DNA from: Escherichia coli O157:H7
GTDB taxonomy: Bacteria; Pseudomonadota; Gammaproteobacteria; Enterobacterales; Enterobacteriaceae
Strand: one strand, 5' to 3'
Length of the DNA stretch: 64,000 nucleotides
Assembly (NCBI RefSeq): GCF_013167455.1
Contig: NZ_CP038328.1
Position 1 is the stretch's first letter. Each line of letters opens with the position of its first letter. Shown here in pieces: positions 45,864-46,082 of the stretch. The position numbers were made by a program, and so were the translations under genes. The notes beneath the pieces are model-generated. The model worked only from the letters and a program-made list of their open reading frames with translations. It ran no database searches and was not told the origin of the DNA.

Positions 45864-46082
45864 TTCCGCCACTCTGTGCCGGTTTACTGCACCGGCACAT
45901 TCCCCCTCCGGCAAAACTTGTCCAACCTGTTGTACTCAATAAGAAAAAATCCGTGCGCTGATTCACAAATTTGTGCGTAATTTCTCCAGTCCGTTGGACG
46001 AGGAGCGGGATTTGATGCGCTTCACAATTTTACTCCCCCTGAGCAACGAGACTGATTCCAGTATCTAAGACTGGAGTCCAGT

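Follow-up and report, generated by a model that had tools for sequence, protein, structure and literature searches.

Conserved TCCA-N6-TGGA palindromes at the start of rhmR as candidate operators of an IclR-family regulator in Escherichia coli O157:H7

We analysed a window of 64,000 nucleotides from Escherichia coli O157:H7 that contains rhmR, the first gene of the L-rhamnonate operon rhmRDTA, and found candidate operators for its product around the rhmR start codon. Judging from the alignment of orthologous loci, the conserved units are 18-bp palindromes of the form nGTCCA-N6-TGGAmn, and not the pair of TCCAGT/ACTGGA inverted repeats into which a first-pass annotation had divided the same bases; the idea of an operator is right in kind and its parse wrong. 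We put the probability at roughly three in four that RhmR dimers bind the TCCA-N6-TGGA palindromes, with two sites (B and C) as a tetramer-type tandem operator at about 46053-46094 and two others (A and P) as extra sites, and that the operon, rhmR included, is repressed in this way, with relief by a substrate or intermediate of the pathway and catabolite control by CRP.

The rhmR operon and its regulator

The rhmR gene (yfaX) is the 260-amino-acid open reading frame (ORF) at 46083-46865 on the plus strand. In NZ_AP018488, an O157:H7 sequence 100% identical to the window, this ORF is annotated as yfaX, an IclR-family regulator, and is followed by rhmD, yfaV and yfaU. Pfam confirms the family that had been assigned on first reading: RhmR has the N-terminal HTH_IclR domain (residues 9-58, 7.3e-9) and the C-terminal effector domain IclR_C (residues 75-247, 5.8e-63) that define it. 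No NCBIfam equivalog matches RhmR at its cut-off, the BhcR, KdgR and IclR models all remaining below threshold. The genes that follow on the plus strand are rhmD (46880-48085), annotated as such and identified by NCBIfam as L-rhamnonate dehydratase (5.7e-247), the annotated transporter gene rhmT/yfaV (48142-49432) and rhmA/yfaU (49458-50252), also annotated and identified by NCBIfam as 2-keto-3-deoxy-L-rhamnonate (KDR) aldolase (2.5e-176). Together rhmD-rhmT-rhmA (46880..50252) form the operon that the predicted sites presumably control.

The rhmT/yfaV gene is frameshifted in this window. An extra T at 48655 (TATGGGGTCATCCC), compared with TATGGGG-CATCCC in O157:H7 PV15-279, splits it into ORFs 48103-48687 and 48641-49432. 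The extra base is either a sequencing error or the mark of a pseudogene in this strain. About 1,440 of 5,426 complete E. coli genomes are without rhmR, rhmD, rhmT and the 5' third of rhmA. This deletion of 3.87 kb (window ~45928 to ~49793; loci L022 and L023) has its left end within predicted site P, after GTCCAACC, and its right end within rhmA; the junction shows a CCT microhomology, and the remnant is a truncated aldolase pseudogene.

Conserved palindromes at the rhmR start

The first-pass annotation had proposed an IclR-type operator in the bases that adjoin the rhmR ATG at 46083. These bases are exactly as it described them: tccagt at 46057-46062, then atctaag, actgga at 46070-46075, g at 46076 and tccagt at 46077-46082, so that TCCAGT and ACTGGA form two inverted repeats, each without mismatch, at 46057-46082. 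The expectation per 64-kb window is 0.07 for TCCAGT-N7-ACTGGA with at most one mismatch and 1.6 for ACTGGA-N-TCCAGT with at most two. For the whole class X6-N(3-12)-rcX-N(0-4)-X or its mirror, about 0.5 instances are expected per 64 kb, and at least one occurs in 40% of simulations; the nested palindrome by itself is therefore statistically unremarkable. It is conservation, and not the palindrome alone, that raises the element above chance.

Conservation was measured on 20 orthologous loci, from E. albertii to Pantoea, taken from a scan at one genome per species, and on eight more distant loci with the same four-gene operon that were added by homolog look-up (Tolumonas, 75% RhmR identity; Vibrio mangrovi, 65%; metagenome contigs, down to 55%). 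The totals are 21 enterobacterial and 8 distant loci, 29 altogether, and pairs were counted on a 28-sequence alignment. The gene order rhmR-rhmD-MFS-aldolase is the same in all eight distant loci. The last ~50 bp before rhmR and its first codons align without gaps in 29 of 29 loci, and 46053-46094 has 25 invariant columns out of 42 across the enterobacterial loci; in these same 21 loci only 3.3% of the synonymous third positions of rhmR are invariant, with a mean identity of 0.65. Of the 3,978 E. coli genomes that carry the 61-mer 46040-46100, 3,352 have it in identical form. This conservation, both between loci and within the species, indicates that the element is under strong selection, and on this comparative evidence we regard it as real and functional. 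As for the conservation check suggested on first reading, a strongly conserved, repeated TCCA/TGGA motif accompanies rhmR in every one of the 29 loci examined.

The bases under selection are not those of the three hexamers. Invariant in the 21 enterobacterial loci are TTCCA (46056-46060), GA (46069-46070), GGAGTCCA (46073-46080) and TGGAA (46087-46091), while the bases needed in addition to make up the hexamers vary (conservation is 76% at G46061, 86% at T46062, 71% at C46071 and 71% at G46081). In distant orthologs the ACTGGA arm reads ATATGA, ATATTA, AACGGA, AAGAGG or GAAGGA. Pair counts in the two inverted repeats, taken either as an RNA hairpin or as a strict palindrome, revealed no covariation above shuffles: 79.8% and 82.7% of cells are paired across the 28 sequences, against shuffle means of 79.4% and 83.3%, and each of the three inner pairs is lost in 4-11 of these sequences.

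Site C, AGTCCAGTATGTTGGAAT (GTCCA-N6-TGGAA), lies at 46075-46092, where it spans the start codon and codons 2-3 and holds the third hexamer. All four pairs between its TCCA (46077-46080) and TGGA (46087-46090) are standard in 28 of 28 aligned sequences, and exact TCCA-N6-TGGA stands at this offset, -10, in 28 of 29 loci. Protein constraint accounts for part of the conservation of site C, whose right half is coding. Site B, ATTCCAGTATCTAAGACT (TTCCA-N6-nRGA; 46055-46072), is a degenerate tandem copy 20 bp upstream that holds the first hexamer. Its TTCCA and GA are invariant in enterobacteria, its right half is poor (two of four palindromic pairs are kept), and its centre lies 20 bp from that of C, free of indels, in 29 loci.

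The motif recurs exactly 92 bp upstream of site C as site A, TCTCCAGTCCGTTGGACG (TCCA-N6-TGGA; 45983-46000), which covers a mapped transcription start. Exact TCCA-N6-TGGA is present at this offset, -102, in 19 of 29 loci, Tolumonas and Vibrio among these, with unrelated spacer sequence; stray exact matches number only two in the ~196 kb of the 29 loci. Site P, TGTCCAACCTGTTGTACT (GTmCA-N6-TGTAC; 45919-45936), is an 18-bp IclR-type palindrome 64 bp from A. It is found in 21 of 21 Enterobacterales loci, with its position fixed to within 1 bp either way, and in none of the eight distant loci. Its right half is TGTAC in 21 of 21 species and never TGGA. A different protein could bind P; the site may differ in affinity or in binding partner. 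In Prodigiosinella and Cedecea (AGTACAACCTGTTGTACT) and in Pantoea (AGTACAACCGGTTGTACT), the three enterobacterial loci without site A, site P is a perfect 18-bp palindrome.

We trained a symmetric weight matrix on sites C and A only. Among the 63,982 positions of the window, C ranks 1st, A 2nd, P 4th and B 6th. Site B, although absent from training, ranks between 2nd and 7th of ~6,760 positions in 29 of 29 loci, and in the four loci without A and P it ranks second or third. Based on these results, the first hexamer is the left half of B, the third is the left half of C, and in the second the degenerate right edge of B runs into the Shine-Dalgarno sequence GGAG. The latter (46073-46076, plus strand, 6 nt before the ATG) makes up most of the middle arm ACTGGA; all 21 enterobacterial loci have it unchanged, and distant orthologs carry other versions that are purine-rich or weak. 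As an operator half-site the middle arm is not supported, being lost in distant orthologs, with the Shine-Dalgarno bases as its conserved part.

A search for the same half-site upstream of rhmD or rhmT, also suggested on first reading, came out negative. The only matrix match there, at 46821-46838 in the 3' end of rhmR, is not conserved: its synonymous sites vary freely, and we therefore ascribe it to chance and rejected an internal operator before these genes. The best matches outside the rhm locus, at 20306-20323 (TGTCCAGTGGTGTGGAAT, inside a 509-amino-acid ORF) and at 5043-5060 (TCTCTAATTTGCTGGATT, in the first codons of a 405-amino-acid ORF on the minus strand), are probably fortuitous as well.

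The 10-residue recognition helix of RhmR is nearly invariant among the 29 orthologs, which is consistent with the invariant core of the predicted half-sites.

The position of the rhmR start codon varies among orthologs (loci L017, L021, L025, L030 and L031; window 46083-46088). In Cedecea and Pantoea the ATG coincides with codon 2 of the E. coli gene. In the Vibrio-group loci ATT-TTG stands at the start position, so the start is probably TTG, and automatic gene calls for L030 and L031 place it elsewhere. The underlying TCCA-N6-TGGA is maintained despite these shifts.

Promoter context

For E. coli K-12 in glucose M9 medium, supplement file 2 of Kim et al. 2012 (PMC3415461) gives a mapped yfaX transcription start, supported by 11 reads, at a distance of 95 nt before the ATG. 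Because the published upstream 51-mer is identical to window 45938-45988, the start corresponds to A45988 on the plus strand, inside site A, and leaves a 5' UTR of 95 nt. Sites B and C lie 75-95 bp downstream of this sole mapped start, an unusual position for occlusion.

Two CRP-like sites flank the mapped start. Site 1, CGTGC-GCTGAT-TCACA (45952-45967, centre 45959.5), is conserved and has two consensus mismatches; we infer its assignment to CRP, and with its centre at -28.5 relative to the mapped start it is not placed as activating CRP sites normally are. Site 2, TTTGA-TGCGCT-TCACA (46011-46026, centre 46018.5), has one consensus mismatch and is centred at +30.5 relative to 45988, the start used in glucose medium. 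Its TGA-N6-TCACA is present in the 21 enterobacterial loci, V. mangrovi, L030 and L031, and in a weaker form (CGA) in Tolumonas. Genomic SELEX places yfaX among the predicted CRP targets (PMC3105977).

A hypothetical second, CRP class II start could be located near 46060, 41.5 bp from CRP-like site 2. A possible -10-like hexamer for it, GAGACT (46048-46053, plus strand), is conserved in position: in the 21 enterobacterial loci conservation is 95% at A46049, A46051 and C46052 and complete at T46053. In AT-rich orthologs the hexamer is improved, to AATAAT in Tolumonas and the Vibrio group and to TATTCT in L029. If this start exists, site B would lie at about +3.5 from it, as A does relative to the mapped start.

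A consensus scan of 45700-46300 found no sigma-70 promoter. We considered a sigma-54 promoter because an RpoN genomic-SELEX peak has been reported in the yfaX-yfaY spacer of K-12 (PMC8743547), and rejected it: the only good match, TGGCAC-N5-ATGCT at 45766-45781 (plus strand), lies near the peak and has one mismatch, but it is inside the 3' end of yfaY and no rarer than chance, with five one-mismatch matches in the window against 3.3 expected. Directly after the yfaY stop, an inverted repeat GTGCCGG-TTTACTGCA-CCGGCAC (45875-45898) is probably the yfaY terminator. It is not among the results of a terminator scan of 45700-46300; similar GC-rich hairpins occur upstream of site P in other genera.

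Published predictions and the IclR family

Three of the four sites had been predicted before. Suvorova and Gelfand 2021 (Front Microbiol 12:675815, PMC8222616) list sites for b2248 at -163 (TGTCCAaCCtGTTGTACT), -99 (TcTCCAGtCtGcTGgACg) and -7 (aGTCCAGtatGTTGgAaT), with spacings of 64 and 92, and these correspond to P, A and C. Their supplement also gives the same sites for Shigella, Citrobacter rodentium, Salmonella, Enterobacter, Klebsiella and Tolumonas. The three sites are computational predictions only, and the site C that overlaps the start codon is thus already known in that form. Site B (46055-46072) is not among them, and the paper treats neither the start-codon overlap, the mapped start nor the CRP sites of b2248. 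What our analysis adds is site B, the link between site A and a mapped start, and the evidence that speaks against reading the repeat as a hairpin or a three-box site.

The same study describes two groups of IclR-family motifs, GKTYCRY-W3-4-RYGRAMC (group 1) and TGRAACA-N1-2-TGTTYCA (group 2). It further reports 32 orthologous groups with three-box sites and 94 with tandem sites at a spacing of 18-22 nt, the latter an arrangement common in the family that it reads as tetramer binding (PMC8222616). C, A and P share the group-1 geometry, in which TYCR and YGRA cores are 5-6 nt apart, as T(C/A)CA-N6-TG(G/T)A; by our own position count, site C agrees with the NGT-12-ACN subgroup consensus NGTYCRAWWWWTYGRACN at 15 of 18 positions. 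The sites also form a phylogenetic footprint in front of the orthologous operons, with C in 28 of 29 loci, B recognisable in all 29 and A in 19 at an identical offset. The distance of 20 bp from centre to centre places B and C within the range of the tandem sites, with the difference that the right half of B is degenerate.

Of the operator claimed on first reading, the kind of element agrees with the published prediction at the start codon, and the architecture does not. In the two inverted repeats TCCA and TGGA are 11 nt and 1 nt apart, as opposed to 5-6 nt (group 1) or 7-8 nt (group 2) in IclR-family motifs. TCCAGT/ACTGGA/TCCAGT looks like an alternating three-box site such as that of PcaU; in the described three-box sites, however, one pair has group-1 and the other group-2 spacing (7-8 nt for TGRA-TYCA). 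We rejected the three-box site here, as TGGA (46072-46075) and TCCA (46077-46080) are separated by 1 nt only and the middle box is unconserved, being lost in distant orthologs. The E. coli IclR (TGGAAATNATTTCCA) and AllR (KTTGGAAWAWTWTTCCAAC) operators belong to the same family and share the TGGAA/TTCCA half-site core, but their half-sites are in the order TGGA...TCCA (group 2), in contrast to TCCA-N6-TGGA at rhmR, and they serve other regulators and regulons.

We know of no LacI-, GntR- or TrpR-type consensus that fits site P. Assignment of P to one of these types was rejected in view of its IclR group-1 geometry, its 4th matrix rank and its published assignment to YfaX (PMC8222616). The searchable literature yielded no binding experiment (EMSA, footprint, ChIP or SELEX) for RhmR/YfaX. 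The "RhmR" of Rodionova 2013 is an unrelated LacI-family protein of Chloroflexus, and the Salmonella XynR paper gives no binding motif.

Proposed mechanism and alternatives

In the mechanism that we favour, each 18-bp group-1 palindrome would be taken by one RhmR dimer, and an RhmR tetramer could fill B and C on one face of the DNA, 20 bp being about two helical turns. Without inducer, RhmR at A would block initiation at the mapped promoter, and RhmR at B and C would serve as a roadblock or else shut off the putative CRP-dependent promoter with a start near 46060. Cooperative binding or looping would be possible given the fixed spacings of the sites. The inducer, presumably L-rhamnonate or 2-keto-3-deoxy-L-rhamnonate, would release RhmR, after which cAMP-CRP would activate. 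With rhmR at the head of the operon, such control would be autoregulatory.

A more extensive reading joins the four sites (spacings 64, 72 and 20 bp) and the two CRP-like sites in one looped complex, in which RhmR would silence two promoters together and keep CRP from acting, as in CytR-type anti-activation. In the transcript the B/C operator would also fold into a hairpin over the ribosome-binding site, so that transcription and translation of the regulator would both be governed by one stretch of 40 bp. We consider this combination improbable.

More doubtful still is that the selected feature is the hairpin itself, acting at the RNA level: UCCAGU (46057-46062) would pair with ACUGGA (46070-46075) in the 95-nt 5' UTR, hide GGAG and limit RhmR translation. 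Since transcription starts at 45988, both arms are indeed in the transcript. The E. coli leader 46040-46110 folds with this hairpin at -19.4 kcal/mol (z -2.85), the whole mapped 5' UTR folds at -41.5 kcal/mol (z -2.87), and where the Klebsiella, Kluyvera and Trabulsiella loci have T instead of C at 46071, a G-U pair remains. Compensatory changes are nevertheless not seen: the 79.8% of cells paired compares with a shuffle mean of 79.4%, 225 of 500 shuffles reaching that level, and each of the three inner pairs is lost in 9-11 of 28 sequences. The hairpin is absent in L026, L028 and the Prodigiosinella and Phytobacter loci. RNAalifold on the mapped 5' UTR of 24 loci favours another consensus structure, a weak one without covariation (-6.4 kcal/mol; covariation term -0.21), and an Rfam search of 45800-46200 at a permissive threshold gave noise only and no family match. 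Moreover, the motif recurs at A and P without such a hairpin. A hairpin that hides the ribosome-binding site may thus be a by-product of the operator sequence.

We give slightly less weight to the reading that the block is conserved only as a set of general expression signals (-10, transcription start, ribosome-binding site, start codon and first codons) and has no dedicated regulator. GGAG, the ATG and codons 2-4 do lie within the block, and the -10-like hexamer directly precedes it. Such signals are, however, normally degenerate between genera, whereas here TTCCA, GTCCA and TGGAA are invariant while the promoter-like hexamer varies. General signals cannot explain the repetition of TCCA-N6-TGGA at a fixed distance of 92 bp upstream, and the match of site B to the motif in 29 of 29 loci also speaks against them.

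It is about equally unlikely that a factor other than RhmR, be it a paralogous IclR-type protein or another, binds the sites, a reading that might hold for site P alone. The constant TGTAC half of P and its restriction to Enterobacterales favour this view, and all sites, their binder included, are predicted from sequence. On the other hand, B and C accompany rhmR into Tolumonas, Vibrio and metagenome contigs in which the flanking genes differ, rhmR is the sole regulator gene that is always present, and the geometry of the sites is that of the IclR family. Finally, a functionless chance arrangement has a negligible probability: the expectation for the class is about 0.5 per 64 kb, but conservation far above the neutral rate in 29 loci, together with the identity of the 61-mer in most E. 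coli genomes that carry it, excludes it.

Significance

The predicted control of the operon by RhmR through the TCCA-N6-TGGA palindromes leaves the understanding of IclR-family regulators unchanged, since the motif type, the tandem arrangement and the start-codon site had all been predicted before. What our analysis corrects is a plausible-looking but wrong parse of the repeat upstream of rhmR. RhmR is still a predicted regulator; its four candidate sites now have exact coordinates, one of them (A) is tied to a mapped transcription start, and the bases worth mutating are identified. An EMSA or footprint with RhmR should therefore be straightforward.
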